A DNA stretch of 64,000 nt. Origin: Candidatus Omnitrophota bacterium. Its GTDB lineage: Bacteria; Omnitrophota; Gorgyraeia; Gygaellales; Profunditerraquicolaceae. Position 1 is the stretch's first letter, and each line of letters starts with the position of its first letter. The stretch is from positions 39,281-103,280 of the forward strand of contig JBAZLB010000004.1 of NCBI GenBank assembly GCA_041650495.1. Direction: 5' to 3'. The notes beneath the pieces are model-generated. The model saw nothing but the letters and a program-made list of their open reading frames with translations. It had not been told where the DNA came from and did not search any database. The position numbers and the translations under genes were made by a program. Shown here in pieces: positions 1,208 through 28,277 of the stretch.

Positions 1208-2389
1208 TTACCGTTTCTGTTGTATCCTTATTGCTTCGTTATATGCCTTTAATAAATTAGCGGCGGTGACATCCCAGTTATATTCTTCTTCAGCACGTTT
1301 ACGTGCCAACTTGCCTAATTCATTACGTAGTCTTTCGTTATCAAGCAATGTAACAATCCCCGCCGCTAACGAATCTGCATCCCCTGGGATGGTCAATAAA
1401 CCGGCCCCTTTCAACATATGCGCAGCCTCTCCAACGTCACTGGCGACAATAGCCTTACCGGAAGCCATATACTCGGCAATTTTAAGAGGACTCTTACATA
1501 AGACCGCTTCATTCCTTTCAAAACATGCAACACATATATCTGCAGATCCGACATAATGCGGAACTTCCTCATGTGGGACTGGCCCCGTAAAGATTATCCG
1601 GTCTTCTAACTTCAACTGAGAAACAAACTTCTTTAAAACCGGTGCCTGATAGCCGTCGCCTACGATCATAAAAAATACTTCCCGCTTATGCTTATACACA
1701 AGATTATATGCTGCCCGTATAAAAAGGTCTACATATTGGCCTCCGTGGAGCTGGCCTAAATATAAAACCAACGGTTTTCTAATAGAGAACCGTTTTTTTA
1801 TACTATCCCCGTATAAAGCAGGATTGAATTTCTCACCGTCTGCTCCTACCCGTGCCTTAAAAATGCGTTTCTCATCAATGCCTCTTTTTTTACATTCCTG
1901 CTCAAGGCGTACACTTGCTACCGATATAGTATCGACAACCTTTGGGATCATTATCTCTAAAAAATTTATGTACGCGCGTATGAAATTCCTAAATATACCG
2001 CCGGATGTAGAAAGTTCAAATATCTTTGTTTCCCAATCATCCCAATCATAATGCAAAGGTTTACTGGCAAGTCTGGCCGATACTATTGCCGGTACAGCCG
2101 CATGATAAAAGCATTTTTGAATATGGATAATCTCAGCCCATCGCGCTATATCCCATAACTTGATTATATTAAAAATCAAATGGTGGATACCCGCCCTCCT
2201 GCAGAAAGGAATAGCCACCACGCGCGGGCATATTTCCTTAAGAGAAGCCGGCTCTCTTGAAAGGGGAAAATATATTATTTTTACCGTATGGCCTTTTTGC
2301 GCAAACGTCTTCGCAAGGGCAACAACGCGCACAGTCCATGGCTCAAAAGAAGAATATATATCATGGGGATGGACCATCGCAATATTCAT
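1208..2389 (-). CDS. Glycosyltransferase family 4 (GT-B, retaining type)
   Basis: 393 aa. The C-terminal region IAEYMASGKAIVASDVGE...LLTIPGDADSLAAGIVTLL is a typical GT4 nucleotide-sugar-binding block (E-x7-E neighbourhood). Confidence 0.7.
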   Translation of the reverse strand: MNIAMVHPHDIYSSFEPWTVRVVALAKTFAQKGHTVKIIYFPLSREPASLKEICPRVVAIPFCRRAGIHHLIFNIIKLWDIARWAEIIHIQKCFYHAAVPAIVSARLASKPLHYDWDDWETKIFELSTSGGIFRNFIRAYINFLEIMIPKVVDTISVASVRLEQECKKRGIDEKRIFKARVGADGEKFNPALYGDSIKKRFSIRKPLVLYLGQLHGGQYVDLFIRAAYNLVYKHKREVFFMIVGDGYQAPVLKKFVSQLKLEDRIIFTGPVPHEEVPHYVGSADICVACFERNEAVLCKSPLKIAEYMASGKAIVASDVGEAAHMLKGAGLLTIPGDADSLAAGIVTLLDNERLRNELGKLARKRAEEEYNWDVTAANLLKAYNEAIRIQQKR

Positions 2390-3533: not shown

Positions 3534-5261
3534 TTAACGCAAAAATCTGTAAAGCCCGAACCGGTAGAGATTATCAAGATTTGTTATCAATGTTTGATGA
3601 TTATCGCAATGCTCACAATGTTCATCGTATAATTTAACACCGTTTAAAAAAGTATATCCTTTATTTTCTTTAAGAAATTTTGCTTTTATCCTATACCTGC
3701 GATATTCCCGGGAATTCCAGAGTTCTTTAAAAGACTGCTTGTTCAAATCGCCAACAGTCCTTAAATGACAGCACATACTCACGTCATAGAGGGCCGGTAT
3801 AAGACAAAAATACCATCCTATCGTACATCCCTCTTGAAGAAAAATATCCTTCGACCATGCCCCCGTGTCTTTGTCGTAATGCTCAAGTTGAAACATAATA
3901 TTATCAACGAAATCTATGCCATTCTCCATGAATATTTTAGTCGCAATCGGTAAGTCCTTCTTAATAACTTCTATTTCCCGTTCGCTCAGTTTAAGGGATT
4001 GATTATTATCGTCTAGCCTAATAAGATAGAAGCGGGCAGCATCCGCTCCTATTTCCGCATCAACCTTAGCCATTTCAATAAGTTCGTGATAATTAAGGGC
4101 ATGGATAACATGCGTCATTTTCAGGCGGGGCTCTAATTTACCCTGTTCCTTTCTGATCCGCACCAATGTTTTAAGATTTACTATTATAGTATTAAATGTC
4201 GCCTCGGTGCCGATTGTGGTCACCTGGGCATATGTAGCAGACGTGCCGGATGGAAAGCTGCAATAAATTTCCTTTACCCCCAAATCTATTAATTCCCTTG
4301 ATTCTTTTTCATGAATCAATGAACCGTTTGTAAAAAAAAGTACACCAATATCCTTACTCCGAGCGTATCTAAGCATATCAAAGAATTTATCATAAAGAAG
4401 CGGTTCCCCGTCTCCTTGCAAGATAATACCATCGACCTTAAGCTCTGCAGAATCGTCAATAATGCTTTTAAACTTTTCTAGGCTAAATTTTCGCTCCAAG
4501 AATCCTTCTCTGTGCTGTATAGCTGGGTTATGCACAAAACAATGCCTGCATTGTATATTGCAGCGATGATAAGGATCAAAGACTATTGTCTGCGGCCCTA
4601 TAAAGGCATGCTCGGCGATGACCCCTAATAATCTTACCAGGTCTCTATCTGAAACTTTTTCTCTTTGCATGTGAAACTGAATGATCTGTAAGATTTCAAT
4701 TAACTCCTCATCGCATAAAAATAACTCGATGGAGGCGTTTTCTATTGCCTCCTGTATCCCCCGAATATATTCTATGAAATTGTGGATTATTTTATCAACC
4801 GGAAAGACATTAAAAGACTCCTCCAGAGACCGACAATCAACCCCTTTAAGACGCATACACAGTTTTACCATCTCATTGATACAGAAGAAGTTATGGCGAG
4901 TTACGCCTATCTTAAAAACAACATTTTTATCTAGCACCGCCATTGATTCCAATCGTTTTATTGTCTCATCGAAGGTACCGTCTTTTCCAATTATTCTTTC
5001 ATGCAGTTCATCAAAATGACCAAAGATACATTCATTATCCTGTTTCAACCCGGGATCAAAAGGCAAAAGATTCATTAATATTTCTAACTCGGTGCGATTT
5101 GCCATTATTATATTCATGTATTCATTGAGTCTTTTAGGGTCATTCAGGCGGACAACCACATCATCCAGTCTTTTCAAGATAGTCCGCAGGCTAAGCCTCC
5201 TGGTTCTTATGGATTCTTTACCCCGCACTGTAATCTTTCTCTCCCAAACATTCTTCCTCAT
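3534..5261 (-). CDS. Radical SAM protein, family B (SPASM-like C-terminus) with ~230-aa N-terminal extension
   Basis: CxxxCxxC at HRCNIQCRHCF. The GDGEPLL SAM motif is present. The C-terminal Cys-rich block GCTIGWYFCLIPALYDVSMCCHL...EHCEHCDNHQ matches the paralogs at 21179..22636 and 17294..18502. Confidence 0.75.
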   Translation of the reverse strand: MRKNVWERKITVRGKESIRTRRLSLRTILKRLDDVVVRLNDPKRLNEYMNIIMANRTELEILMNLLPFDPGLKQDNECIFGHFDELHERIIGKDGTFDETIKRLESMAVLDKNVVFKIGVTRHNFFCINEMVKLCMRLKGVDCRSLEESFNVFPVDKIIHNFIEYIRGIQEAIENASIELFLCDEELIEILQIIQFHMQREKVSDRDLVRLLGVIAEHAFIGPQTIVFDPYHRCNIQCRHCFVHNPAIQHREGFLERKFSLEKFKSIIDDSAELKVDGIILQGDGEPLLYDKFFDMLRYARSKDIGVLFFTNGSLIHEKESRELIDLGVKEIYCSFPSGTSATYAQVTTIGTEATFNTIIVNLKTLVRIRKEQGKLEPRLKMTHVIHALNYHELIEMAKVDAEIGADAARFYLIRLDDNNQSLKLSEREIEVIKKDLPIATKIFMENGIDFVDNIMFQLEHYDKDTGAWSKDIFLQEGCTIGWYFCLIPALYDVSMCCHLRTVGDLNKQSFKELWNSREYRRYRIKAKFLKENKGYTFLNGVKLYDEHCEHCDNHQTLITNLDNLYRFGLYRFLR

Positions 5262-7806
5262 AACAACAATTAATAATCTGATGGCAATTTTTATTACATT
5301 TTTTCACTTCTTCCCTGATTTTCTCCGCTGTCTCGGAAAACCATATGTCATAAATATCCCTCTCAAGAACATTCCCGATTGAATCCATCTCTTCGCAGAA
5401 CGTAACATTACCTTTCTCATTGATGCTCAGGAATGAATATCCCATATTGCAGGTGATATGCTTACGGATATATTGATTCGGGTCCGCATAGTACTTTTTA
5501 TAATTCACCAGTTGAGAAACGGGATTGCCTAACTTGTGGTATCCGGACATCTTCATTTCAATTAATTTATCAATGATGTCGTGTAACTGCTGCTTGTCCT
5601 GAGGCCATAACGTTTTACTTCCCGGCCTTTTATACCACCCTGCATCTTTTTCATACCCGCGCGGCTGGATCAAGCCTAAGAAATTTATAAGATTAATCTT
5701 TTTATTCCCTTGGACCCATGTTAAGAGCGGAATAACATCATCCAAATTCTCTTGCAGTATTATCATAAGTAAATTTATTTCTGTTTGCGGGGCATAGCGA
5801 TGCAACAATTCTATTGCCTCCATGACTTTAACATAAGACCCGTCTACGCCCCTTATGAAATCATGCCGCTCCTTATTGAGACTATCTAAAGAAAGCGCGA
5901 TTGTCCGTAACCCCGATTCCCCTATAGATTGCGCCTGCTTTTTATCAATTAAATAGCCATTAGAACATACCGCGGTCAAAAACCCGTTATCATTAGCAAA
6001 TCTAATTAAGTCAGTTAAGCCTTCTTTTAAAAACGGTTCTCCGCCGGCAAAATTTATCTGGCAATGGTTATCGGCTACGCGTTTAAAAGCAAGCAAAAAA
6101 TCTTTCCATTGCCCTGATGTAAGTTCTTCATTGCTATCCTGCTTCCAGATTTGACACATCTTACATCTAAAATTACACCTATATACTATTCCTAATGCAC
6201 AAAAACGCGGCCTTATGATTTCCAGGGCTTCTTGGCGGGATAAATGCTTACTATAAGAACCGGAAGACACGCACGCCAGATCGTAACGGCGCTTCTCCCG
6301 CATCGCTTTATCTAGCTCTCTTTTAAGTTCTTCCCGACGGGGGGCCATCTTTAGGGCTTCCTTCAATTCTCTTATAGCTTCATCAAATTGATGCTGTTTT
6401 AAGAATATGCCGCTTAAGCCGATATACGAATCTATTGATCCGGAGGCTATCTGCCTGAAATCTAAATACAGCTGCTTTGCCTCTTCATACCGATTATATT
6501 GTTTATATATACTCGCTAAGCCGTTCAACGCGCTGATATCTCCGGGATCAATATCCGACATTCTCTTATAGGCTGCTTCAGCTCTATCATAGTCTTTTCT
6601 CTCATAACAAAGTTCCGCTAAACAACCTAACGCTGGCTTACTTCTGCTGTCTATCTTAAGAATATCTTCACATAGCTGTTCTGAGGAATCGTATAGTTTG
6701 TTTTCTTTATAGCAGGCCGCAAGCAGTTCCATTGTTTTTATATCTCCGGGAGAGAGGACTAATATTCTTTCATATAAACCTGCGGCTTTGCCGGGTAGCG
6801 TTTGGCTATAATATAAATCAGCGAGCTGCTTAAGCAATGTTATACAAGCAGGCTCTAAACGTAATCCATGATGATAAAGTGCGATTGCTTTATCGTAACC
6901 GCCGTGTCTCTGATAGGCCTGAGCTAATTTCTCCAGCCATACCAATCTCTCCCCGCCCTTGTTAAAGAACGCCTTAATTAATCTTTCGGCTTCTTTAAGC
7001 CGCTGCTGCTGCAATAAATAATTACCTACTGCAGAGATACCCTCGGTAGTGCTCCTGTCAAGCCTCAACCCTTTGCGATAAACCTTGATGCCTTGGCTTG
7101 TCTTGCCCATTTTCACTAAGGCACCGCCGTGTCTCTGATAGGCCTGAGCTAATTTCTCCAGCCATACCAATCTCTCCCCGCCCTTGTTAAAGAACGCCTT
7201 AATTAATCTTTCGGCTTCTTTAAGCCGCTGCTGCTCTAATAAATAATTACCTACTGTAGAGATACCCTCGGTAGTGCTCCTGTCAAGCCTCAACCCTTTG
7301 CGATAAACCTTGATGCCTTGGCTTGTCTTGCCCATTTTCACTAAGGCACCGGCTAACCCTTTATACACAGGACTTCCTGATGGCATGGTCTTTAATGCCT
7401 TGCGAAACATGTTTTTAGCTTCTTTATATTGCCCAGCCATATCGAGTAAAACCCCTAAATTATACTGGGCCCACCCATGATTTTTGTTTATTAGCAATAT
7501 TTCCTGGCTTAAACGTAGAGAATCGGAATATTGTCCTGTTTGTCTGGAAATATCTGCCAAGCCATACAAGGCTGTTTCGTTTTTCGTATCAAGTGCAATG
7601 GCTTCCTTAAAATACTCTGCGGCCTCTGTATATCTGCTTTGTTCTCTTAAAGTTTGCCCCATAAAAATAAAAACATCGGGATCAGAAGATCCTTTGCTAA
7701 GGATTTCTTTAAAACATTTAACGGCCTCAGTATACTCTCCGGCAAAAAAATGCGACCTACCTCTTGTTTTAAGATCGGAATGGGTTGTTTTGGTTTCTAG
7801 TGGCAT
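5218..7806 (-). CDS. TPR-repeat (~520 aa) fused to family-A radical SAM domain
   Basis: 862 aa. The N-terminal half is TPR-like helical repeats with a duplicated 75-aa segment. The C-terminal half carries FCALGIVYRCNFRCKMCQIW (CxxxCxxC), FAGGEPFL and the terminal motif CNKNCHQIINC shared with the five stand-alone family-A paralogs. Confidence 0.8.
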   Translation of the reverse strand: MPLETKTTHSDLKTRGRSHFFAGEYTEAVKCFKEILSKGSSDPDVFIFMGQTLREQSRYTEAAEYFKEAIALDTKNETALYGLADISRQTGQYSDSLRLSQEILLINKNHGWAQYNLGVLLDMAGQYKEAKNMFRKALKTMPSGSPVYKGLAGALVKMGKTSQGIKVYRKGLRLDRSTTEGISTVGNYLLEQQRLKEAERLIKAFFNKGGERLVWLEKLAQAYQRHGGALVKMGKTSQGIKVYRKGLRLDRSTTEGISAVGNYLLQQQRLKEAERLIKAFFNKGGERLVWLEKLAQAYQRHGGYDKAIALYHHGLRLEPACITLLKQLADLYYSQTLPGKAAGLYERILVLSPGDIKTMELLAACYKENKLYDSSEQLCEDILKIDSRSKPALGCLAELCYERKDYDRAEAAYKRMSDIDPGDISALNGLASIYKQYNRYEEAKQLYLDFRQIASGSIDSYIGLSGIFLKQHQFDEAIRELKEALKMAPRREELKRELDKAMREKRRYDLACVSSGSYSKHLSRQEALEIIRPRFCALGIVYRCNFRCKMCQIWKQDSNEELTSGQWKDFLLAFKRVADNHCQINFAGGEPFLKEGLTDLIRFANDNGFLTAVCSNGYLIDKKQAQSIGESGLRTIALSLDSLNKERHDFIRGVDGSYVKVMEAIELLHRYAPQTEINLLMIILQENLDDVIPLLTWVQGNKKINLINFLGLIQPRGYEKDAGWYKRPGSKTLWPQDKQQLHDIIDKLIEMKMSGYHKLGNPVSQLVNYKKYYADPNQYIRKHITCNMGYSFLSINEKGNVTFCEEMDSIGNVLERDIYDIWFSETAEKIREEVKKCNKNCHQIINCCYEEECLGEKDYSAG
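6901..7350. repeat. Direct tandem duplication, 2 x 225 bp, in-frame, inside the TPR region of the TPR-rSAM gene
   Basis: Sequence 6901-7125 is repeated at 7126-7350 with only about 2 mismatches (ctgcaataaa/ctctaataaa; ctgcagag/ctgtagag). In the protein, ...GGALVKMGKTSQGIKVYRKGLRLDRSTTEGIS.VGNYLL.QQRLKEAERLIKAFFNKGGERLVWLEKLAQAYQRHGG appears twice. Confidence 0.85.
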
Positions 7807-7820
7807 ATAAACAGCCTAAA

Positions 7821-8828
7821 TTAATAAATGTACACTTCTGAAGGGTCAAAATTACAATTGACCATGGATTGACAATTCCGTTTGCACTGCGCTATCTTTT
7901 CCCGTATCATTTCCGCTTTTGAGGAATTCCACACGGTGTTAATATCGTCATATTTAATGTTTCCGATCGGTTCCATGTAAAAACATATCCTTATTTCTCC
8001 CGTAGGAGTTATGTTAATGGCCTGGGTGTCAATATGGCACTTTTTCTGCTTAACAAAGTCATTGGGATTATGAAAATATGCTTTAAATACCTGCAGTTGG
8101 GGCAAAGAATTTCCAAGCTTGTTAAACCCGGATTCTTTCATCTTGATAAGCCCGTTCATAATTTTGTCAACTTTTTTAAGGTCTATAGGCCATAAGGAAC
8201 TATACCGGCTGTCAGTATACCAGTGCAAATCTTCTGGTGTACTAAACGGTTGTGTGATAGCCTGAAATCCCATTCCGTCTATCTTGTCATTCTCCTGTAT
8301 CCACCTGACAATATCCACAAGTTCATCAAGGTTTTCATTAGAAATAACGGTGCATATGCCTATCTTTACATCGCTGCTGTATTTATCCAGAAGCTCGATA
8401 GCCCTCATAACCTTCTGATATGCCCCTCTAACACCGCGGAGAGAATCATGGCGGTCTTCCCTGAGACTGTCTAAAGATATATTCACAGTGGTAACGCCTG
8501 AAGCCGCTATGTTCTCTGCCATTGTCTCATCGATAAGGAAGGCGTTAGTAGCAAGTAACGTAACAAAGCCATGTTTATGGGCATAGTTGATTAATTCCAA
8601 TGTTTCCGCACGTGCCAATGGCTCTCCTCCTGCAAAGTTTATTTGGGATTTATCTTTCATAAGAGAACGTAACGAATCAATAAAATACCTCCAGCGCTCT
8701 ATCGTTGGCTCAAGAGGATCCCGGGCCTTGATATCAGATTTCCACTTATAACACATACGACATCGCAAGAAGCAGCTTTCCAATAACGCTATACAGCAAT
8801 AAACAGGAGCTGATATATTTTTTTGCAT
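7821..8828 (-). CDS. Radical SAM protein, family A (MoaA/twitch-like, ~335 aa)
   Basis: N-terminal LLESCFLRCRMCYKW (CxxxCxxC at residues ~17-24), FAGGEPLA, and C-terminal Cys motif CKRNCQSMVNC. Confidence 0.8.
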   Translation of the reverse strand: MQKNISAPVYCCIALLESCFLRCRMCYKWKSDIKARDPLEPTIERWRYFIDSLRSLMKDKSQINFAGGEPLARAETLELINYAHKHGFVTLLATNAFLIDETMAENIAASGVTTVNISLDSLREDRHDSLRGVRGAYQKVMRAIELLDKYSSDVKIGICTVISNENLDELVDIVRWIQENDKIDGMGFQAITQPFSTPEDLHWYTDSRYSSLWPIDLKKVDKIMNGLIKMKESGFNKLGNSLPQLQVFKAYFHNPNDFVKQKKCHIDTQAINITPTGEIRICFYMEPIGNIKYDDINTVWNSSKAEMIREKIAQCKRNCQSMVNCNFDPSEVYIY

Positions 8829-16231: not shown

Positions 16232-17278
16232 TCATATAACCTGGAACGGATAATCACCTTCAAAAAAACAATTTAAAAGATGATGGCAGTTTCTTTTGCA
16301 ATTTATTATATTATTTCTAACGGCGCATGCCTTCTTAGAATACCAGGCCATAGCCAGGTCATCATGCATGATATTGCCTATCCTTTCCCACTCATAGCAT
16401 ATGTATATATTGCCAATTGCATCCACATGGACTGCGCGATCCAAATTACAGGCTGTCTTCTTTACGAATCTATCGGGGGAATCAAAATATTGTTTAAACG
16501 CTTCCAGCTGACAAAATTGGTTATTTATCTTAGACCCCTGTTTTTTCATCCCGATTAAACGATCTATAACGGTTGTTATCCGTGCGGTATCGTCAGGCCA
16601 TAAATACTGGAATTCTTCCCGGTACCAGCGAGGATTAGGCCTGGTATTATTCGGCTGCATCGCCGCCATAAAATAAACCCATTTAATCCGCGGATGCTTA
16701 TTCACCCATTCCGCAACCGATACAACTTCATCCATATTAATCTTGTATATGACACAACAGATAATAATTTCAAACTCTCCCGGGCAATACTTATCGAGAT
16801 ACTCAATGGCATCCATGACTTTATGGTATACCCCCGGCACTCCACGTAAATAATCATGCGTAGACGGATTCATGCTATCCAGCGAAATATTAATGCTCGA
16901 CAGCCCGGACCTTCCTATTCTGCGAGCCATAGGTTCATCAATCAAGCAAGCGTTGCTGGCGATGTTAGTACGCAAACCGTTCTCTGCAGCAAAATGCACG
17001 ATATCCAATAGCCCTTCTAATAGAAGCGCTTCCCCCCCGCCAAAGTTTATAAGAAAATCCCTGCCCGCTATTGAGCGCAACGACGATATAGCTCTTTTCC
17101 ATAAGGTTATATCCGGTTTCGGTATGTCCCTGGGGACATTAAGGTCGGGTCTCCACTTTTGACACATTTTGCAGCGTAAAAAACACTCATCGACTACGCC
17201 AAAACAACAGAAACCAGGCCTTAATGTAGCCCGGAAATCCATCTTGACATCCTCGCTGCTATTGATTTGTCCGCTCAT
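16232..17278 (-). CDS. Radical SAM protein, family A
   Basis: FCCFGVVDECFLRCKMCQKW, FGGGEALLL, C-terminal CKRNCHHLLNCFFEGD. This is the closest paralog of 12411..13457. Confidence 0.8.
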   Translation of the reverse strand: MSGQINSSEDVKMDFRATLRPGFCCFGVVDECFLRCKMCQKWRPDLNVPRDIPKPDITLWKRAISSLRSIAGRDFLINFGGGEALLLEGLLDIVHFAAENGLRTNIASNACLIDEPMARRIGRSGLSSINISLDSMNPSTHDYLRGVPGVYHKVMDAIEYLDKYCPGEFEIIICCVIYKINMDEVVSVAEWVNKHPRIKWVYFMAAMQPNNTRPNPRWYREEFQYLWPDDTARITTVIDRLIGMKKQGSKINNQFCQLEAFKQYFDSPDRFVKKTACNLDRAVHVDAIGNIYICYEWERIGNIMHDDLAMAWYSKKACAVRNNIINCKRNCHHLLNCFFEGDYPFQVI

Positions 17279-17293
17279 GGAAGATATATTATC

Positions 17294-18502
17294 CTAAAAC
17301 CACTCCACCGTGGCTAAGGTTTTCAACAGCCTGACTTGTACTGGGCTGAGTTTATTTATCTTTTGATGCATGATCATATTCCTTCCTAAGTCATCGCAAC
17401 TTTTATAACAACCGATTTTCTTACCGGGGTCATTGCCTATAAAAGAAAGTAAATCATGGTCTTTTACTTTCGACTGCATGCATCTGCGGAACATCCGCTG
17501 TTTTGCATTATTCCATATTTTATCAAAATTATCTTTGTATAAATTCCCTATCGGGATCCTATGTGATTTAAGGCAGGAATTGACATTGCCATCAGCCAAA
17601 ACCCGGGCAAAAAGCCACCCAACATAACAGGGGATACTATCAATAAAACCGCGGTCATACTCTGCGGCACCTGCGTATTCGCTCTCTACGCGCCTCATAA
17701 ATTGTTCAAAATTAGAAATAATCAGCCGGCCTTTCTGAGTACAATATTCCTTATTCTCTTTCATAAGCCTGCACATCGCCAAGACATCATCAGCTTGGCC
17801 CTGCTGAAATAATAACGTATCGGTACACCCGGGGATAGTATCAACTACAGTAAATTCAACTTCTTCAGAAGCTGTTTCCAAGCAAAACTCGGCCATTTTA
17901 AGCAATTCTTGGTAATTTAAGTTAGAGATGACATTATAGATCTTTACTTTAGGAAAACACCCCTTGGTTCTATTGAGCAAGGTGAGTAGCTGCCTTATGC
18001 GTATAAAGTCATCCTGCGTTTTATTAGGATGTGTTTTTACATAAGTTTCCGCTGTAGCCGCCCATAAGCTTACAACAAGATAATCGAGTTTTATCCGTTT
18101 GAATGCCGCTAACATATCTTCGTCCACTAAAGTAAAATTTGTATGTAGGTGACACTTAAATCCCCGTTTCTTAGCATAAGAGATTATCTCTATGGCCGCC
18201 GGGTGCATTAAAGGTTCCCCTCCCCCGCTGAAATATAATTCCGCAGTATGCATTTTCTTAAGGGTATCTATCAAGCGTTTAGCCACTCGGTAATCAATAC
18301 TCTGCCGTTTAACGGCTTGGGGGGTCGCTTTATCTTTCAGTAATGGCGAGTTACACCAACAGGCAATGCAATTATTGTTGCAGTCATTCGTTAAATCAAT
18401 CTGGACGCAATCCGGCCCTTTATACGCATATTCGCCATTAAATATGCCCATAATAGTCATGGCGTTTCTTAGTGTCTTGCCGCAAATGAGGCTTTTATTC
18501 AT
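17294..18502 (-). CDS. Radical SAM protein, family B-like (402 aa, SPASM-like C-terminus)
   Basis: DLTNDCNNNCIACW (CxxxCxxC), FSGGGEPLMHP. The C-terminus IPCYVGWLFARVLADGNVNSC...GCYKSCDD is alignable to the C-termini of 3534..5261 and 21179..22636. Confidence 0.7.
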   Translation of the reverse strand: MNKSLICGKTLRNAMTIMGIFNGEYAYKGPDCVQIDLTNDCNNNCIACWCNSPLLKDKATPQAVKRQSIDYRVAKRLIDTLKKMHTAELYFSGGGEPLMHPAAIEIISYAKKRGFKCHLHTNFTLVDEDMLAAFKRIKLDYLVVSLWAATAETYVKTHPNKTQDDFIRIRQLLTLLNRTKGCFPKVKIYNVISNLNYQELLKMAEFCLETASEEVEFTVVDTIPGCTDTLLFQQGQADDVLAMCRLMKENKEYCTQKGRLIISNFEQFMRRVESEYAGAAEYDRGFIDSIPCYVGWLFARVLADGNVNSCLKSHRIPIGNLYKDNFDKIWNNAKQRMFRRCMQSKVKDHDLLSFIGNDPGKKIGCYKSCDDLGRNMIMHQKINKLSPVQVRLLKTLATVEWF

Positions 18503-18518
18503 GCCATCAGGGATACTT

Positions 18519-20981
18519 TTATTGTTGAATATTCAGTAAATACTTTATGCTTTTTATGACGGTACGCACAAAACCTTTTGATTTTATATTATTCCTAAAG
18601 GCAACCCGTAATTCCCGGTCAAACGGTATATTATAGAAAGAGCGCCGCGAGCGCATATAGTATTTCCACTTCTTCAATGCTTCGTCTTTGGCATGTTCTA
18701 AATCTTCCGGAGAAAGAAATTCGGTTCTGATGACGCTTCTTGATGCCCCGTCATAACAAGACCAGTCTTTCGAGATAATATGCCCCTTCTTTTCCAGCGC
18801 CTCATAATATTCTGTCCCCGGGTAAGGAGTCATAATGGAGAACTGCAGGGAATCAGGCTTAAAACTTAACGCGTAGTCTATTGTCCTTTTTATGGTATCC
18901 TGTGTTTCCCCGGGCAGGCCAAAGGCAAAAGTGAGGTGTATCTTTATCCCTAAGGCTTGAGTCGCATATATCATACGTTCCGCATGCCGCAAATCCATGC
19001 CCTTCTTCGCGTTATCAAGCAGCTTCTGTTCTGCGGACTCTAATCCATACTTTACTGCGTATAATCCGGATTGTTTCATCGCAAGAAGCATTTCTTCATC
19101 CATAGTATCCGCGCGGGCCATAATCGCCCAAGGCACAACCAAGTTTCTCTCCCGGATCTCCCCGCAAAACTTTAATACATTTTCTTTGTCAATATTGAAG
19201 GTATCATCGTCAAAATAAATCGACTTAAAATTACGTTCTTTTACCAGGTATTCCATCTCATCGACAACAGCGGCGGGACTGCGGACCCGGTAGCGGTTGC
19301 TATTATACATGAGCTGCGGCCAGGCGCAAAAAATGCATTGGAAAGGACACCCCCGGCTTGCAACCATCTGAACACTAGGAAAAGCGATCTTCCCGGGCGC
19401 ATCTTTATACCGTTCCATACATAATTGTTCTCTTAATGGCCATGGCAAATCATCCAAATCCTCAAGTAAGGCTCGCGCAGGGGTGATCCTGACAGTATTG
19501 TTTTCCCGATAAAGGATTCCTGATACGCCCTGCAGACTTCTGCCGTTCTGTATGGCTTGGAATAATTCAAATGCCGCGTATTCATATTCACCGACAATAA
19601 CAAAATCTATAAAATTGTTCTCGGCCAGGAAAGATGGCTGCCTGATATTAAAGTCTAGCCCGCAAACAGCTATTTTTGTATGTTTTCCTGATATTTGCTT
19701 TAAGATTTCCAGGTCATTCTTCAAAGAGGGGGTAGAGACCTCCGCAACCAACAGTTCCGGCTCAAGCTCATTCACCAGCCTTACAAATTCTCCTTCTTCG
19801 ATCTGCTCAGCTATGGCGTCAATTATTCTTACGCTAACGCCTCTTTCCAAAAAGACAGCTGCGGAATAAGCCAAAAAGAACGGGAAAGGAAGATACGCCT
19901 CTTCGCCAGCGTCTTTTATATGCGGCCATCGAGACCCTGCCCTGACTCCCCATCTATTCCCCTGTTTCCAAGGCAGGTTTATTAACACTACCTTCACAGG
20001 CTTTAGGACATTCGTTAAATATTTCTTATTCATCTTCTCTTCTATGAATGGCAGCCGTTGGCGGTATAATCTCTTCTTGGAATCAAGCATATGTTGATCG
20101 ATTATTTTTTCATCTTGAATTATGTGTATGCTATTTGACAAAATATTCCGGCTCATGCCAGCCGCATAAAAATCCCGCGGACTATGCGGCTTAACCTGAA
20201 TTAATAATGCGCGTAAATTCGCGCTATAATCACTATTCCTGATAATAGGCCTTATGTCTTCCTTTGGGCTATCCGCCTCCAAAATAATCGCTGGTTTATA
20301 CTCATTATTGCAAAACGTGCTCCGCACTCCCAAAGAACGCGAGGAAAGATTCCAAAAATTTATATCCTGCCATCCTTCTTGCGTAGGTTTTATCGGTGGA
20401 AATGTCCCCCCTTCATAAGAACTTATCCAGCCGGTATAATCTGAAGATACCAAAAGAGCCGCTTCCTTTTCTCCGAGAGAAATATTTCTTTTAGGGGTTA
20501 TGTCTATCTTCCAATCGATAAGCCTCTCTCCTTGCACCGTAATCTGCCAAGACTGTTTAAGCGCAAAGAAAGGCCAGGTGAGTATTATTTCCGTATAACA
20601 AGGCAAAACACGTAGTACCTCCCAGCGCGCCTGATTCGAATATAGCCTGCCGCGCATAAAACGCTTATCATTCAGCACAGTTACAAAACCCGGGGCTTGA
20701 GTAAGCTTTATGTCATTCCAAAATAAATCTATACACCTACGCGCAGGATGAATCGATAACTTTAATCTACCGGCAATTAATAATATTGTCCGGGCGTCTT
20801 CTTGGCAACCAAGCTTAGAACTAATAAACCGCGAGAATATATACCGCAGGCCACCATTACCTATGGTATAGACGATAAACGCAAAGGCGCGATAAAAAGC
20901 ATAGAACACCCCCTTATGGCGAAGGTAATATAAGAATCTTCCGGCTATAAAATTGATAAATCCTTGTTTATGTATTTTCAT
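18519..20981 (-). CDS. B12-binding radical SAM protein (class B) with ~330-aa N-terminal domain of unknown function
   Basis: 820 aa. A B12-binding-like region (VLINLPW...IAVCGLDFN) is followed by ASRGCPFQCIFCAWP (CxxxCxxC). The N-terminal third has no recognisable motif. Confidence 0.7.
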   Translation of the reverse strand: MKIHKQGFINFIAGRFLYYLRHKGVFYAFYRAFAFIVYTIGNGGLRYIFSRFISSKLGCQEDARTILLIAGRLKLSIHPARRCIDLFWNDIKLTQAPGFVTVLNDKRFMRGRLYSNQARWEVLRVLPCYTEIILTWPFFALKQSWQITVQGERLIDWKIDITPKRNISLGEKEAALLVSSDYTGWISSYEGGTFPPIKPTQEGWQDINFWNLSSRSLGVRSTFCNNEYKPAIILEADSPKEDIRPIIRNSDYSANLRALLIQVKPHSPRDFYAAGMSRNILSNSIHIIQDEKIIDQHMLDSKKRLYRQRLPFIEEKMNKKYLTNVLKPVKVVLINLPWKQGNRWGVRAGSRWPHIKDAGEEAYLPFPFFLAYSAAVFLERGVSVRIIDAIAEQIEEGEFVRLVNELEPELLVAEVSTPSLKNDLEILKQISGKHTKIAVCGLDFNIRQPSFLAENNFIDFVIVGEYEYAAFELFQAIQNGRSLQGVSGILYRENNTVRITPARALLEDLDDLPWPLREQLCMERYKDAPGKIAFPSVQMVASRGCPFQCIFCAWPQLMYNSNRYRVRSPAAVVDEMEYLVKERNFKSIYFDDDTFNIDKENVLKFCGEIRERNLVVPWAIMARADTMDEEMLLAMKQSGLYAVKYGLESAEQKLLDNAKKGMDLRHAERMIYATQALGIKIHLTFAFGLPGETQDTIKRTIDYALSFKPDSLQFSIMTPYPGTEYYEALEKKGHIISKDWSCYDGASRSVIRTEFLSPEDLEHAKDEALKKWKYYMRSRRSFYNIPFDRELRVAFRNNIKSKGFVRTVIKSIKYLLNIQQ

Positions 20982-21178: not shown

Positions 21179-22636
21179 TTACAGGAACTTCTCCAGCGAG
21201 TATCTTTTAATAATCTTGAGCATATGAAGATGCTGATTAATGTTCTCGCAGGAATGGCATTTGTCATCAAATAACTCTTCTCCGCGGACAAACCTAGTCC
21301 CTCCTTCCTGTTCTAAACGTTTTGCTGCAATTCGATACGAATTGTACTCATCAGAGAACCATATAGTATCAAAATCAGATCTTTGCAAGCTGCCGACCAT
21401 TTTGTTTCCGCAGCAAAAAAGAACCTCCCCTGCCGCCTGGATGTTACAGAATACCCACCCTGTTAAGCACCCGTTATCTTTAAAAAAATCCTTCGTCCTT
21501 AACCCATCGCGGTTGTTATAGTAATCCAAATAAATAGTGGATAAATGATCTGTCCTGATCCCGTGGTTTTCTAATTTTTTTATTGACGCTGGCAAGTTAG
21601 TCTTGAGATAATCAACCTGCGGTTCGGTTAATTTAAGATAAGCATTGTGTCCTTCAATCTGAATTGGTTTAAATGTCACCGCATCGACCCCAAGGTCAAT
21701 ATCCATATCCACAAAGCTTGACAAATCGTAACAATTAAGACTATGTATGACATGGGTTATCTGAATCTGGGTCGTCCCTTTTGAGGTGTTTTTATATTCT
21801 ACAAGCGACCTTATATTATGCCTGATCTTTTCAAAATCGCTCATTGGGCTCATTGGGCAGATTTGATGGTATCGCAGCCTAGAGGCAGCAGGAAGGCTAA
21901 CCGTAACAATAGCTATTCCGGAATCAACCATCAGTTTTGAAAGCGCATCATTCATAAAAACCCCGTTGGTCACTGTCTCAAACCCCAAGCCATTATCCCG
22001 GCAGATACGGATAGCATCTTTTATATTCGGGTGCATCAGCGGTTCGCCGTTGGCAAGCAGGCTTATCTGTCGTGTACCTATTTTCTTCGCCCTCACTGCA
22101 ATATTTCTAAACATATCGATACCCATCGTCTGCCGGAGATAGGCGATATCTTTCTCCTGGGTACTCGGCGCATGAATCCAACAATGCAAACAATTAGTAT
22201 TGCATCTATGCAACAAGTCAACGACAACTAAAGACGGGCCGATAAACGTATCTTCACAAATAGCGCCTAGCGCCATTAAAACATCCTGCCTGGTATCGTC
22301 ATCAGTCTCTTTTATCTTGCTTAGACCTAAAAGCAGCTGCGCCAATTCCCGGTCATCCAATAGAATTTGGATACAAAATTTGGAAAGCCTGGCATTCATT
22401 GTACTGATATATTCCATCCAACGCATTAGTATATTATCCGTAGGAAAGACTGAGAAAGGATCGACCTCCTCCACTGCGGGCATTCTTTCGCGTAACAAGC
22501 AATCCAGTCTTAAGAAATTGTATTTATTCGCTCGCAATAATCCTGCCGCTGTTTTGTAAAAACCGCCCTTACTATTAAGGGTACAATGAGAACGCTCTGC
22601 AAATTTGAGGTATCGTGCGGATAAACCAGGCAACAT
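21179..22636 (-). CDS. Radical SAM protein, family B (SPASM-like) with N-terminal extension
   Basis: LHRCNTNCLHCW (CxxxCxxC), ANGEPLMHP. The C-terminus is GCLTGWVFCNIQAAGEVLFCCGN...DDKCHSCEN. Its N-terminal region is alignable to the N-terminus of 3534..5261 (AEHAFIGPQT / CEDTFIGPSL). Confidence 0.75.
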   Translation of the reverse strand: MLPGLSARYLKFAERSHCTLNSKGGFYKTAAGLLRANKYNFLRLDCLLRERMPAVEEVDPFSVFPTDNILMRWMEYISTMNARLSKFCIQILLDDRELAQLLLGLSKIKETDDDTRQDVLMALGAICEDTFIGPSLVVVDLLHRCNTNCLHCWIHAPSTQEKDIAYLRQTMGIDMFRNIAVRAKKIGTRQISLLANGEPLMHPNIKDAIRICRDNGLGFETVTNGVFMNDALSKLMVDSGIAIVTVSLPAASRLRYHQICPMSPMSDFEKIRHNIRSLVEYKNTSKGTTQIQITHVIHSLNCYDLSSFVDMDIDLGVDAVTFKPIQIEGHNAYLKLTEPQVDYLKTNLPASIKKLENHGIRTDHLSTIYLDYYNNRDGLRTKDFFKDNGCLTGWVFCNIQAAGEVLFCCGNKMVGSLQRSDFDTIWFSDEYNSYRIAAKRLEQEGGTRFVRGEELFDDKCHSCENINQHLHMLKIIKRYSLEKFL

Positions 22637-25518
22637 TATGAGCAGTCTCCAAGCATTATTTCACCGTGAAAATAGTGATACTTACCTTCTGCCAGTTTTT
22701 GCTTATCCGTGGCGTTGATACTCTCAAATCCCAACTTTCTGCTTTTGAAGATACGATTTGTATTCTCCACGGTTGCAGTGATGCCGCCAGGGCCGCTAAA
22801 GCAGGAAAAGGACAGGCCGGGTAAAATATCCGCTCCTTGCCCCTGCTGTTTGATGCCAGCGCTCAAGCGGTCAATCTCATCCCGGGCATAAAGAATATCC
22901 CACCGCGATACAGCATAACTATCCGGGAATGATCCGGACATATTATCAGCCGCACGCCAATGGTTATAGATACCGGAAAGCATAATATTAGCCTGTTGTT
23001 TTATTATTGTGGTTGATTCAAAAATCTCCATTTCGACATCCCAAATGAAACCATTTGTTTTATTTTTAACCTCCCATACCTGCACCAAAGGGATATATGG
23101 CCACGTCCCTCGCAGTAACAAACTGTCCTTACGGGAAGCGATTATCTCCCAGCTGGCATCCAAAGAAACGTACCACTGGCCCTGGTTGTTATGTCCTTTC
23201 GAGTAAACCGAGGTATAGAGACCAAAGGCGCTGGTAATTTCTTCGTTGCGATGCTTTATTCTCCCGTTCCCCCGGTCAAAAATAAATATATACGGACCAT
23301 TCTCAATGGTTGATCTTTTACGTACGGACGGGGCAAGACACGAAGATAATTCAACGCCTCTTTTCTCTATAATATACCCCTTCAGATCGGGCTCCGTGCC
23401 AATGGTTATTGAGAAATCCCCGGCTAAATATGAACCTTTAAAATAATTTATTGATTCTTTTGAATCTATACTCATAAAATAAAGGTGGTTTGCTAACTCA
23501 GTATTTCCTGAGGCATCTGCGAATACAGTCGCATTCCAGTCTAACTTTCTTTCCAGAGAATTAAATTTAGGGGGCCGGGAAGCGTCATGTATCAATACCG
23601 CCGGTAAAGCTGCGTTATCCTGCCCTGATGATGTCAAACCAAGGATATGCAGCAAATCATTCTTCATGAGCGTACTCTTAAAATCCTGACCGGTTATATC
23701 TTCACCTGTATCACCGGACTCACTACTGGTAAACCATCCCCGGTAATCCGCAGAAAACATTACTCGAAATTCATTGTTTCTAATTACCGTGTCTTCTAAA
23801 ATCACTAAGCGGACCTGGCAAGTAATGGTATTGTTACCTGCGATTTTAAAATCCCATATTTGTTGTATAGGTAACCCCGGCCATCTGATATAAACCGAAA
23901 GGCGGGCTGCAGAGACCCGGTGTATCATCCAGAAGGCATCGGAACTCTGGTATTCCTTACCTTGGTAATAAAAACTGGTTTTAAACCCCTTTCCGGCGGT
24001 TATCTTTGCCCCTCTCCAGTATAAATGGATCATCTTGTCATTATATGCATGTAACAATACAGTATCGTCCTTGCCTTGAATAATCTTAGGCAACATTAAT
24101 TTAGGAAAATTCTGGAGCCTATGAGTAAGTAAACGTTTGTTTCCAACCATAATTTTCAAGTGAAACAACGTACTTTTTCCGGATTCAAGACTCAAAGATT
24201 GCGCATCAGGATTGATAATACGGGATTGCAAAGCCCGGGCCATAAATACCTGGTTGGTATTATGGACTTCTAATAATTTAGTATCGGTATACACCTCGTC
24301 TATGAAAGCGATCGATGGTAATTGGGAACTAGGCCCTCCAGGCGCATTCAAGCCGATGAAATTAACAGCCGGTATTTGTTTGTCCGCGCATTGCCAAAAA
24401 ATCTCCTCTCTCAAATCGCTTGTCTCAAAGCACCCATTTATGAAAGGATTGAACCACTGCCTATATTCATCCCTTAACATGATACAGGCCGTAAATTCGT
24501 CAATTACACACGCCTGGCGAATATTCATTTCTATTACACAGTCGATTACACCCGCATCATTATCAAAGTATATTTCCCATACCTGCGAAAGCGGTAAATG
24601 CCACATTGTCCCTTCCACAACTATCTTGCTATCATCCCGTTTTCTTAACAGCCAATCTGCCTGAAAAGAACAGTGCTGGTTACCTGCGCTTAATATGGAT
24701 ATGTACCCTCCCAATCCGGCAGTTATTGTATCCTGGCCGAAACTAAACGAGAGTTTCCCATTATTAAAAATAACGCCCAATGAGTCCTTTTGGAGCATGG
24801 CGATGCCCCGCTTATCACCTACCGTCTCCAGGTAATATGAACAAACCTCCCTGATCCCTCCGTCTTGAACCACCTTTCCGTCTTTAAGTAAGACCCCCCT
24901 GGAACAAAAACGTTTCGCTATTTCTAAATTATGAGTAACCAGGATTATCGATTTCCCTTTCTCCTTGAGTTTAAGCATCCTGTCTATGCATTTACGCTGC
25001 GCATACAAATCACCCACAGCAAAGATGTCATCGATCAATAGGATGTCCGGCTCAATGTGTATCGCTATAGCAAACGCCAAGCGCATATACATGCCTTGTG
25101 AATAACTCTTCACGGGCGCATTAATAAACCTACCGAGGGCGGCAAACTCTACTATATCATTAAACCGTGATTTTATCGCATGCTTAGCAAGGCCGAACAG
25201 TGATGAAATAAGGTAAATATTCTCTTTGCCCGTTAACTCCGCATGGAATCCTGCCCCGATATTAAGAAGCGGGGCGATCGTCCCATTGATAAAAACACTG
25301 CCTGTATCAGGCTTAAACATACCGGCGATTATCTTAAGAAGAGTGGTTTTGCCAGCGCCGTTATCGCCGATAATACATACACTCTCTCCTCTTGGAATAT
25401 CTAACGTTACTCCCTGCAATGCCCAGAAGTCTTCCGGGAAGATTTTGTTATCTTCTTTAAAGTCTATTCTGTATTTTAAACCCACGCCCCTTAAAGATAC
25501 TGCATTCATCGATCTCAT
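22636..25518 (-). CDS. ABC transporter ATP-binding protein, Wzt/TagH-like, with ~700-aa C-terminal triple-repeat domain
   Basis: The N-terminal ~240 aa carry Walker A GDNGAGKTTLLK, the signature-region LSGGMYMR-like block YSQGMYMRLAFA, and Walker B ILLIDD. The remaining ~700 aa hold three divergent ~200-aa repeats each containing a W..P.(L/I).Q(V/I)W(E/D) core. The gene start overlaps the upstream stop by 1 nt. Confidence 0.75.
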   Translation of the reverse strand: MRSMNAVSLRGVGLKYRIDFKEDNKIFPEDFWALQGVTLDIPRGESVCIIGDNGAGKTTLLKIIAGMFKPDTGSVFINGTIAPLLNIGAGFHAELTGKENIYLISSLFGLAKHAIKSRFNDIVEFAALGRFINAPVKSYSQGMYMRLAFAIAIHIEPDILLIDDIFAVGDLYAQRKCIDRMLKLKEKGKSIILVTHNLEIAKRFCSRGVLLKDGKVVQDGGIREVCSYYLETVGDKRGIAMLQKDSLGVIFNNGKLSFSFGQDTITAGLGGYISILSAGNQHCSFQADWLLRKRDDSKIVVEGTMWHLPLSQVWEIYFDNDAGVIDCVIEMNIRQACVIDEFTACIMLRDEYRQWFNPFINGCFETSDLREEIFWQCADKQIPAVNFIGLNAPGGPSSQLPSIAFIDEVYTDTKLLEVHNTNQVFMARALQSRIINPDAQSLSLESGKSTLFHLKIMVGNKRLLTHRLQNFPKLMLPKIIQGKDDTVLLHAYNDKMIHLYWRGAKITAGKGFKTSFYYQGKEYQSSDAFWMIHRVSAARLSVYIRWPGLPIQQIWDFKIAGNNTITCQVRLVILEDTVIRNNEFRVMFSADYRGWFTSSESGDTGEDITGQDFKSTLMKNDLLHILGLTSSGQDNAALPAVLIHDASRPPKFNSLERKLDWNATVFADASGNTELANHLYFMSIDSKESINYFKGSYLAGDFSITIGTEPDLKGYIIEKRGVELSSCLAPSVRKRSTIENGPYIFIFDRGNGRIKHRNEEITSAFGLYTSVYSKGHNNQGQWYVSLDASWEIIASRKDSLLLRGTWPYIPLVQVWEVKNKTNGFIWDVEMEIFESTTIIKQQANIMLSGIYNHWRAADNMSGSFPDSYAVSRWDILYARDEIDRLSAGIKQQGQGADILPGLSFSCFSGPGGITATVENTNRIFKSRKLGFESINATDKQKLAEGKYHYFHGEIMLGDCS

Positions 25519-25534
25519 CCCGTGTGTACGTGCC

Positions 25535-26317
25535 TCAGATTTGTTTTAAAGCATCCTTCTCTTTTTTCGTGAATATGTAATGGCCCAGCCATATGCTCGC
25601 CAAGCTAAATCCAAACGCAAACAACCACATAACGCTGTCTCCTTTTGAGCCGTTATAAAGTATAGCGCGATAAAGAAGGGTATAACAGGTAGCTGGATTT
25701 GCAATCATAATAACCTGATGCCCCTTTGAGATACTTTCTAAAGGGTAAAATATGGGGGTCAACCAAAATAAAAACATTAAACCAATATTCAATAACTGCG
25801 CTAAATCCTTATAATAGAGATTACCGATGCTTACCATGAGCGATATGCCCAATGTAAAAACAAAGTGGAGCAGCAGGACGAGCGGCAATAATGCTAAGGA
25901 ATTTATGATTCTGGTATTACATAGAATAAAAACGGGCAAGAGACCTATAAAACCAACTAAAAAATTTACAAAGTTTGCTAAAACCACCGAGAGGGGTATT
26001 GCCTCATTCATAATAACGAACTGATTTAATACGGCACTATTATTCTTAATGGAAACTGCCGCTTCTGATAATGAGTTTGCAAAGAAAGACCAGGCCAAGA
26101 GAGCACTCAATATAAAAAGGGGGAAATTACTTATCCGGGTAGGCATTATTTGTGTGAAAACGAAGTTAATGGCACACATAATAAGCAGGGGATTAAGAAC
26201 TGCCCAAAAAATACCTATGGTAGAGCCAATATATTTATCACTTAAATTACGCTGCACCAGGCTCTTAATTACGTTTTTCTGTGCGCTTATCTTAACAAGT
26301 TTATCTCGTAGAGTCAT
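25535..26317 (-). CDS. ABC-2 type transporter permease (Wzm/TagG-like)
   Basis: 260 aa with 6 predicted TM helices in the ABC-2 arrangement. It lies directly upstream of the Wzt-like ATPase. Confidence 0.7.
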   Translation of the reverse strand: MTLRDKLVKISAQKNVIKSLVQRNLSDKYIGSTIGIFWAVLNPLLIMCAINFVFTQIMPTRISNFPLFILSALLAWSFFANSLSEAAVSIKNNSAVLNQFVIMNEAIPLSVVLANFVNFLVGFIGLLPVFILCNTRIINSLALLPLVLLLHFVFTLGISLMVSIGNLYYKDLAQLLNIGLMFLFWLTPIFYPLESISKGHQVIMIANPATCYTLLYRAILYNGSKGDSVMWLFAFGFSLASIWLGHYIFTKKEKDALKQI

Positions 26318-28121: not shown

Positions 28122-28277
28122 TGATCGCTCGATATGACAGGTCAGCCATTTGTACCACTAACAAGGCGAGAGAGATTTTCTCTTTTGTAAAGCCGATCTT
28201 ATACAGCCGAGGTCGAATAAAATTTTTGGGATTGTTGCTGTTCGGAAGAATAATGTGTAACCCCATGAAAATATATC

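Follow-up and report, generated by a model that had tools for sequence, protein, structure and literature searches.

The chemistry of radical S-adenosylmethionine (rSAM) enzymes is well known from cofactors, peptides that are ribosomally synthesised and then modified after translation (RiPPs), antibiotics, and lipids; to our knowledge, it is hardly known for bulk cell-surface glycans. Among the described Wzm/Wzt-type export pathways, we know of none with about eleven rSAM enzymes. Where Wzm/Wzt systems have been characterised, the polymer to be exported is recognised at its modified terminus by the C-terminal domain of Wzt, as outlined in PMC9445017. Here we analysed a stretch of 64,000 nucleotides (the window) from the Candidatus Omnitrophota bacterium contig JBAZLB010000004.1, in which an operon with about eleven rSAM enzymes, six of them paralogs of one family (family A), lies within a probable glycan-export locus of the Wzm/Wzt type. 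One of the six, designated TPR-rSAM, carries a long array of tetratricopeptide repeats (TPRs) in front of its catalytic domain. We read TPR-rSAM as an active enzyme of a glycan pathway whose TPR arm would dock partner enzymes or substrate, an interpretation to which we give a probability of about 0.45. A search of the available literature on TPR plus radical SAM/SPASM or on Omnitrophota radical SAM found no description of this architecture or of the cluster.

Architecture and catalytic motifs of TPR-rSAM

The initial annotation proposed that a single open reading frame (ORF) of 862 amino acids (aa) joins about 520 aa of TPR-like repeats to a full rSAM core. The frame is open from ATG to stop (862 codons), and the Pfam TPR, Radical_SAM, and SPASM matches and an AlphaFold model all agree with this architecture (Table 1). 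More than 12 TPR-clan families score above Pfam thresholds over aa ~15–510, with TPR_2 (146.5 bits) and TPR_19 (131.7 bits) among them; the N-terminal half contains multiple 34-residue helix-turn-helix repeats matched by TPR hidden Markov models and is thus TPR-like, as proposed. The model, built on a 38-sequence alignment, has a mean predicted local distance difference test (pLDDT) score of 88 and consists of about 28 helices in the TPR region, followed by a confident rSAM barrel, a C-terminal beta-hairpin, and a Cys-rich domain. A conservation profile revealed two conserved patches in the TPR array (aa 76–125 and 426–500), with a middle that varies in sequence and length. Stand-alone orthologs start just past the position of the linker, at a conserved KPRFCA motif.

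The catalytic half has the sequence and fold features of the radical SAM superfamily: the CX3CX2C motif, which ligates the [4Fe-4S] cluster, a partial TIM-barrel fold, and a Pfam match above the gathering score. Orthologs keep both CX3CX2C and the GGE motif (aa 588–590) without exception, and across family A the former is at least 90% conserved. The Pfam SPASM model (PF13186) matches aa 786–842 with 29.3 bits against a cutoff of 21.5, and the cysteines of this auxiliary domain are arranged as C786-X12-G-X4-C804 and C837-X3-C841-X5-C847(-C848). Five of them are conserved across family A, C848 is confined to close orthologs, and the final SPASM cysteine is not conserved. The first half of the canonical seven-Cys SPASM motif (CX9-15GX4C ... 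CX2CX5CX3C ... C, two auxiliary clusters) is therefore present and the complete motif is not; judged from the sequence, the pattern fits either one auxiliary cluster (twitch-like) or a variant SPASM domain. No match to a RiPP recognition element (RRE) was found when the protein was searched for RRE-type Pfam families. Since every motif needed for activity is present, TPR-rSAM is predicted to be catalytically competent and not a dead scaffold.

The public record of this protein, MFA5090190.1, is named only "tetratricopeptide repeat protein", with no mention of the radical SAM half, and mining of rSAM architectures by name would miss it. Exact sequence matches place the window on a 191.7-kb contig of an Omnitrophota metagenome-assembled genome, which is absent from the GTDB species representatives covered by the scan.

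Table 1. Features of the TPR-rSAM gene and of the surrounding operon (window positions)
Feature	Position	Strand	Remarks
TPR-rSAM gene	5218..7806	minus	862 aa; NCBI MFA5090190.1
TPR superhelix, aa 9–512, ~14 helix pairs	6271..7782	minus	Pfam, model, conservation profile
225-bp in-frame tandem duplication (75 aa, aa ~153–302)	6898..7351	minus	2.0 copies, 98% identical
Linker, aa 513–531	6214..6270	minus	lower model confidence
Radical SAM core, aa 541–697	5716..6186	minus	Pfam Radical_SAM (PF04055), 75.4 bits vs cutoff 29.5
CX3CX2C motif (CNFRCKMC), C544/C548/C551	6154-6177	minus	within Radical SAM core
Partial SPASM/twitch-like auxiliary Fe-S domain, aa 786–848	5263..5451	minus	Pfam and Cys pattern
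Family-A stand-alone paralogs	7821-8828, 8882-9877, 11374-12381, 12411-13457, 16232-17278	minus	sequence comparison
GT4 glycosyltransferase	1208..2389	minus	paired with family B in L002, L006, L009, L011, 48–57% identity
Family-B rSAM/SPASM, 575 aa, ~225-aa N-terminal extension, fold unassigned	3534..5261	minus	
Two stand-alone family-A rSAM/SPASM paralogs, 335 and 331 aa	7821..9877	minus	
B12-binding rSAM (B12-rSAM), 496 aa	9874..11364	minus	
Two stand-alone family-A paralogs, 335 and 348 aa	11374..13457	minus	
SGNH/GDSL hydrolase with membrane anchor, 331 aa; polytopic membrane protein, 577 aa	13461..16199	minus	
Family-A paralog (348 aa) and family-B rSAM/SPASM (402 aa)	16232..18502	minus	
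B12-rSAM, 820 aa, N-terminal domain X (aa ~60–316)	18519..20981	minus	best NCBIfam match HpnJ, below cutoff
Family-B rSAM/SPASM, 485 aa	21179..22636	minus	
Wzt/TagH-like ABC ATPase (960 aa, three C-terminal domain X copies) and Wzm ABC-2 permease (260 aa)	22636..26317	minus	
TPR protein without fusion partner, 233 aa; SGNH+TPR protein, 350 aa	26314..28121	minus	both conserved in L004

Integrity of the fusion and an internal duplication

A second, independent assembly (ENA contig k141_822032, locus L001), which evidently stems from the same population as the window, is 100% identical to it over 17.5 kb and contains the same fused ORF, at 787 aa. Fused homologs with 36–67% identity lie on unrelated contigs: P0002, P0003 (Omnitrophota MAG, a metagenome-assembled genome), P0004, P0121, P0122, P0151, P0152, locus L004 (an ORF of ~1000 aa), and P0162, which is more distant. 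An assembly or frameshift artefact as the origin of the fusion is ruled out by L001 together with the homologs on other contigs, all of which keep one ORF, and the possibility of two separate genes, raised with the initial annotation, falls with it.

L001 lacks a 225-bp in-frame tandem duplication that makes the window protein 75 aa longer, and the proposed ~520 aa of TPR-like sequence has to be corrected in this respect, as ~75 of these residues are due to the duplication. A CGGT microhomology lies at its junction (GACACGGCGGTGCCTTAG). Three sites distinguish one copy from the other (T184A, a silent change at L190, and E191Q), and there are zero differences between the assemblies in the other 17.5 kb. 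The duplication is probably real and was collapsed in the k141 assembly, because a novel junction could not be assembled without reads that contain it; an artefact of strain mixture is disfavoured because three differences fall within 225 bp and none elsewhere. Model confidence is at its lowest in the duplicated stretch (pLDDT 66–80). Recent internal TPR duplications are also found in P0002 and P0004, and the TPR array is evidently dynamic in this family.

Family A and its architectures

The initial annotation contrasted the fused protein with five stand-alone paralogs, and this contrast holds: five ORFs are 33–38% identical to aa 520–862 of TPR-rSAM (E 1e-73 to 1e-87), and five of the six paralogs in the operon are without any recognition domain. 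None of the curated NCBIfam models, which include PTO1314, AhbD, NirJ, PqqE, MoaA, WgkB, and viperin, reaches its cutoff for TPR-rSAM or its paralogs; the best rSAM match of TPR-rSAM is GeoRSP_rSAM (98.4 bits; cutoff 400), and the other models fall still shorter of theirs. When 1.84 billion representatives were scanned exhaustively with HMMER, 456 of them were recovered at E ≤ 1e-30. Given this number and the lack of a curated model that is reached, family A is sizeable but undescribed; we describe it as a BlsE-like rSAM family with a partial SPASM domain. By sequence profiles it is similarly distant from SkfB, GDGT-MAS, CteB, BlsE, MoaA, SuiB, PqqE, and viperin.

We then grouped the 178 family-A proteins that had been collected by architecture. 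Single-domain proteins account for 129 of them, 8 carry an N-terminal and 5 a C-terminal TPR region, 10 contain two or three tandem family-A domains, and 23 have other N-terminal extensions. Representatives of each class were confirmed by Pfam, which also revealed a GT2+rSAM/SPASM+family A protein (P0194; GT denotes a glycosyltransferase family) and a B12-rSAM+family A protein (P0222). Full-length matches of the fused architecture number four among 5.8 billion clustered proteins. The statement that this architecture is not common is therefore correct in absolute numbers (these four matches, and 13 of the 178 family-A proteins), yet it needs qualification, as the design recurs in multi-paralog rSAM arrays.

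A neighbour-joining tree groups the N-terminal TPR fusions in one 13-leaf subclade that includes the complete stand-alone proteins P0124 and P0125, and the C-terminal TPR fusions in a separate 10-leaf subclade; TPRs were therefore joined to the catalytic domain at least twice independently. We considered whether the stand-alone orthologs are "split" versions with a neighbouring TPR gene, but this is not supported at the P0124 locus, where a search beside the gene found no adjacent TPR gene. TPR-rSAM orthologs range from 421 to ~1000 aa in length, and the short variants P0121 and P0122 may be truncated gene calls.

Other unusual architectures were also seen. An Elusimicrobia MAG (L012, 1726-20407) contains eight consecutive genes of 511–960 aa, each with N-terminal TPRs and a Radical_SAM (+SPASM) domain; these proteins are only 21–25% identical to the window TPR-rSAM and form a distant family. 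Large fusions (P0194, P0212, P0217, P0246, and P0257) comprise a GT2 domain, a coiled coil of variable length, a hydrophobic segment, rSAM/SPASM, and family A, and N-truncated versions of them also occur (P0176, P0180, P0197, P0206, P0258, P0260, and P0273). In L018 (4859-8459), the family-A ORF upstream of TPR-rSAM continues for ~280 aa beyond its rSAM domain and, in a different frame, overlaps the TPR-rSAM ORF; a sequencing error or a frameshifted family A–TPR–family A fusion could explain this.

Gene context in the window

The genes from 1.2 to 28.1 kb of the window are all co-directional and tightly packed. On the minus strand, the 5' part of the operon encodes, in order, SGNH+TPR, TPR, Wzm, Wzt/TagH-like, family-B, 820-aa B12-rSAM, family-B, and family-A proteins; the 3' part continues with the 577-aa membrane protein, an SGNH hydrolase, two family-A proteins, a B12-rSAM, two further family-A proteins, TPR-rSAM, the 575-aa family-B enzyme, a protein with a weak SGNH match, and the GT4 glycosyltransferase. 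The start of the 575-aa family-B gene overlaps the TPR-rSAM stop by 11–44 nt, and this gene lies directly downstream of TPR-rSAM in four of the six readable loci (the window, L002, the P0002 contig, and L018). Its N-terminal extension has no Pfam or PDB sequence match, even at permissive thresholds.

The locus has the hallmarks of an ATP-binding cassette (ABC) transporter-dependent glycan locus, i.e., ABC2_membrane and ABC_tran proteins together with GT4 and GT2 genes. The best matches of the ABC_tran ATPase are the TagH/Wzt models, which score below their equivalog cutoffs. Two membrane-anchored SGNH hydrolases are present. The 577-aa membrane protein (14466-16199) shows seven hydrophobic segments in a crude hydropathy scan, with about nine transmembrane helices estimated, and a soluble C-terminal part. 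It has no Pfam, NCBIfam, or PDB sequence match (for Pfam and PDB even at permissive thresholds). Its weak similarity (E 6e-6) to the PMT-family GT-C protein in L002 suggests that it may be a GT-C glycosyltransferase that has diverged. The GT2 gene at the operon's upstream edge (28122-28922) appears to be broken into at least two ORFs (28278-28490 and 28521-28922) and is likely to be a pseudogene or to contain a frameshift.

The G+C content of the cluster is ~0.40, compared with ~0.47 in the rest of the window, which is made up of chromosomal housekeeping genes (V/A-type ATPase, CarB, dihydroorotase, and trehalose synthesis genes). The step from ~0.40 to ~0.47 is near 40 kb, where the glycan/rSAM region and its adjacent genes give way to housekeeping genes. 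The minus strand carries all substantial ORFs of the window, and the GC skew is negative over the full 64 kb.

Related loci in other genomes

Relatives of the array occur in MAGs labelled Omnitrophota, Planctomycetales/Planctomycetia, and archaeal. The gene order of the window is kept in L003 and L004 at 50–76% identity. Elsewhere, family-A genes are found in longer consecutive runs: seven in L008, eight each in L006 and L010, 12 in L009, and 13 in L011, where L010 and L011 are archaeal-labelled MAGs (L011, Methanosarcinales). The arrays of L006, L009, and L011 each border on a family B + GT4 pair. Neighbouring genes in the relatives encode PMT/PMT_2 GT-C proteins, GT1, GT2, and GT4 enzymes, sulfatase-like proteins, PAPS reductase, and a nucleotide-sugar epimerase.

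The exporter and the rSAM proteins share a module of ~200 aa without a recognised family, designated domain X. In the window it occurs three times in the C-terminal extension of Wzt (22636-25518, aa ~244–960) and once in the N-terminus of the 820-aa B12-rSAM. It is present twice in the L004 ortholog of this B12-rSAM, and also in L003, at the C-terminus of a GT4-adjacent protein of L009 (18282-20603), and between the two family-A domains of P0159. As the module is common to the exporter and to tailoring enzymes, its distribution suggests that both may recognise the same molecule.

Discussion

Given the architecture, conservation, paralogy, gene context, recurrent fusions, and structural neighbours described above, we infer that TPR-rSAM works in a glycan pathway. 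The protein can be viewed as a family-A enzyme onto which an N-terminal TPR superhelix of ~500 aa would have been grafted. On the cytoplasmic side, ahead of export, the rSAM enzymes of the operon would tailor a sugar or lipid-linked glycan by radical chemistry, and decarboxylation, dehydrogenation, epimerisation, or C-methylation would be the likely reactions. Glycan tailoring is favoured because the locus contains a Wzm/Wzt exporter, GT4, GT2, and GT-C-like genes, and membrane-anchored SGNH enzymes, and because the relatives contain GT2–rSAM fusions, the family-A fold is BlsE-like, and no precursor peptide, RRE, or peptidase is found.

In this glycan pathway, the TPR arm would perform no chemistry and would serve as a docking platform that tethers TPR-rSAM to its partner proteins, the likeliest being the translationally coupled family-B enzyme, other rSAM paralogs, or a glycosyltransferase. 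Multi-step modification could thereby be done in one assembly. Such an assembly fits the observations that paralogs separate in the window are covalently linked elsewhere, that separate TPR proteins are conserved in the operon, that the family-B gene is translationally coupled, and that the ends of the array are conserved and its middle is variable; the conserved ends would be anchor points, and the middle would grow and shrink by tandem duplication. The covalent links found elsewhere join two or three family-A domains, a B12-rSAM and family A, or GT2 and family A. Docking also gains indirect support from the independent N- and C-terminal TPR fusions, from the eight TPR-rSAM genes of L012, and from the likeness of the TPR half to OGT and SPINDLY. 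The initial annotation had suggested that the arm docks onto a partner or substrate, or organises the other rSAM enzymes; this is consistent with everything found, and the arm most plausibly docks the enzyme to partners.

Several points weigh against this reading. SPASM-type enzymes are classically peptide modifiers, and proteins are the substrates of PMT-type GT-C enzymes and of transferases with a TPR arm, such as OGT. By sequence profiles, family A is about equally distant from peptide-, lipid-, and nucleotide/sugar-modifying rSAM enzymes, and the lead to BlsE is structural only, at 16% identity. The orthologs P0124 and P0125 (57% identity) have no TPR at all and no TPR gene nearby; the arm is therefore accessory and dispensable for the core reaction. 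The predicted template modelling (pTM) score of the model is 0.62, at which the orientation of the TPR arm relative to the active site is not reliable. As for domain X, it has no Pfam or PDB sequence match even at permissive thresholds and no detectable link to known carbohydrate-binding modules, and the AlphaFold model built from its four window copies has a pLDDT of 35, too low for use.

Among the alternatives, we consider recruitment of a protein or peptide unlikely but worth retaining. In such an OGT- or RiPP-maturase-like enzyme, the concave face of the TPR superhelix would feed an unfolded protein or peptide to the rSAM/SPASM active site for thioether formation, epimerisation, or C–C cross-linking. 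SkfB, CteB, SuiB, PqqE, and anSME are among the closest solved structures, and the SPASM enzymes are classically maturases of peptides and proteins. In a Foldseek search with the whole model, OGT and SPINDLY came out on top; both bind protein substrates through their TPR arms, and we keep this explanation because these enzymes use the same design for recruitment. PMT/PMT_2 genes, members of the protein O-mannosyltransferase family, recur in the neighbourhoods, and the best NCBIfam match of the B12-rSAM at 9874-11364 is "RiPP maturation radical SAM C-methyltransferase", below cutoff. However, a search of the intergenic gaps of the 31-kb cluster found no plausible precursor-peptide ORF, and the cluster genes include no RRE domain, peptidase, or peptide-type exporter, the sole transporter being of the Wzm/Wzt type. 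Moreover, five of the six paralogs have no recognition domain, the best structural match is the sugar enzyme BlsE, and GT2 is fused to family A in other genomes.

A more elaborate version of glycan tailoring is speculative and distinctly improbable as a whole. Here, 6–13 BlsE-like paralogs and the B12-rSAM enzymes would form a serial line acting on a lipid-linked surface polymer, with TPR arms, whose repeat number is varied by duplication, holding or positioning the enzymes; the length of the TPR array would be a fast-evolving ruler that diversifies the glycan, and domain X would be the means of recognition for both the tailoring enzymes and Wzt.

The coiled coils of the O-antigen chain terminators WbdD and WbbB act as rulers, and by analogy the TPR array could be a molecular ruler or spacer whose length sets the distance between an anchor (membrane, glycosyltransferase, or transporter complex) and the catalytic domain, and hence the site of modification on the polymer. 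The range of ortholog lengths would fit such a role, as would the length changes by recent in-frame tandem duplication in the window protein, P0002, and P0004, the variable middle between conserved array ends, and the GT2–rSAM–family A fusions, in which the coiled coil that separates the GT from the rSAM module differs greatly in length. The long C-terminal extension of Wzt would in turn imply recognition of a modified chain terminus, to judge from the systems outlined in PMC9445017. Nevertheless, this is pure analogy with no evidence of an anchor, TPR-less orthologs exist, and some of the short variants (P0121 and P0122) may owe their length to gene calling, so that we regard a ruler as quite improbable.

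Tailoring of a membrane lipid (hopanoid-, polyprenoid-, or tetraether-like) instead of a glycan is very unlikely. HpnJ is the best match of the 820-aa B12-rSAM, but its 263 bits are far under the cutoff of 577.6; GDGT-MAS/Tes are among the closest solved relatives of family A and the arrays are present in archaeal MAGs, yet no lipid-backbone biosynthesis genes were found in the window or the related loci, where the consistent partners are glycosyltransferases and the Wzm/Wzt exporter. Finally, an anti-phage role as a viperin-like rSAM enzyme with a TPR sensor is effectively rejected, as the match of the PADLOC pVip models to TPR-rSAM (E 1.7e-23) is limited to the generic rSAM core (profile positions 6–162 of 257) and equally strong for all paralogs, the score for the NCBIfam model viperin_w_prok is 77 bits where 180 are required, and the context is a large biosynthetic operon and no defence island.

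Beyond TPR-rSAM, the larger finding is a multi-paralog rSAM array in a glycan-export locus that extends across several uncultivated phyla. About eleven rSAM enzymes within a Wzm/Wzt export locus point to a large unexplored anaerobic glycan chemistry in these phyla. The TPR-fused member is the most tractable handle on the function of the array, since its arm could reveal partners or substrate, and the TPR-less, short-, long-, and C-terminal-TPR forms provide a natural series for probing what the arm does.

Comparison with known systems

The best structural match of the family-A core is BlsE (PDB 7VOB), the cytosylglucuronate decarboxylase of the blasticidin S pathway. Both are ~330 aa in length and lack an N-terminal peptide-recognition domain. 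In contrast to TPR-rSAM, BlsE has no TPR arm, and it acts on a free nucleoside-sugar in an antibiotic pathway rather than in a Wzm/Wzt locus; no BlsE model is among the best NCBIfam matches of TPR-rSAM. The closest solved structures by sequence profile are SkfB, anSME, SuiB, CteB, and PqqE, which likewise consist of an rSAM core and a C-terminal Cys-rich auxiliary-cluster domain. Family A differs from these SPASM/twitch maturases in its five cysteines (CX12GX4C ... CX3CX5C) in place of the seven-Cys motif, and it has neither an RRE or peptide-binding N-domain nor a precursor peptide gene in the cluster.

At the level of the locus, the likeness is to the ABC-transporter-dependent Wzm/Wzt and TagGH pathways for glycans of the O-antigen or teichoic-acid type: as in these, glycosyltransferases and tailoring enzymes stand in one operon with an ABC-2 permease and a TagH/Wzt-like ATPase whose C-terminal extension is long. 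Known Wzt proteins have a carbohydrate-binding domain, whereas the extension of the window Wzt has three copies of domain X instead. For the TPR half, the closest structural analogues are OGT and SPINDLY; these have a GT-B catalytic domain (GT41) C-terminal to their TPRs, where TPR-rSAM has rSAM/SPASM, and the resemblance does not go beyond the TPR half, where the designs are analogous, with no homology between the enzymes. TPR-rSAM combines known kinds of parts, an rSAM/SPASM-type enzyme and an OGT-style TPR arm, within an undescribed rSAM family.

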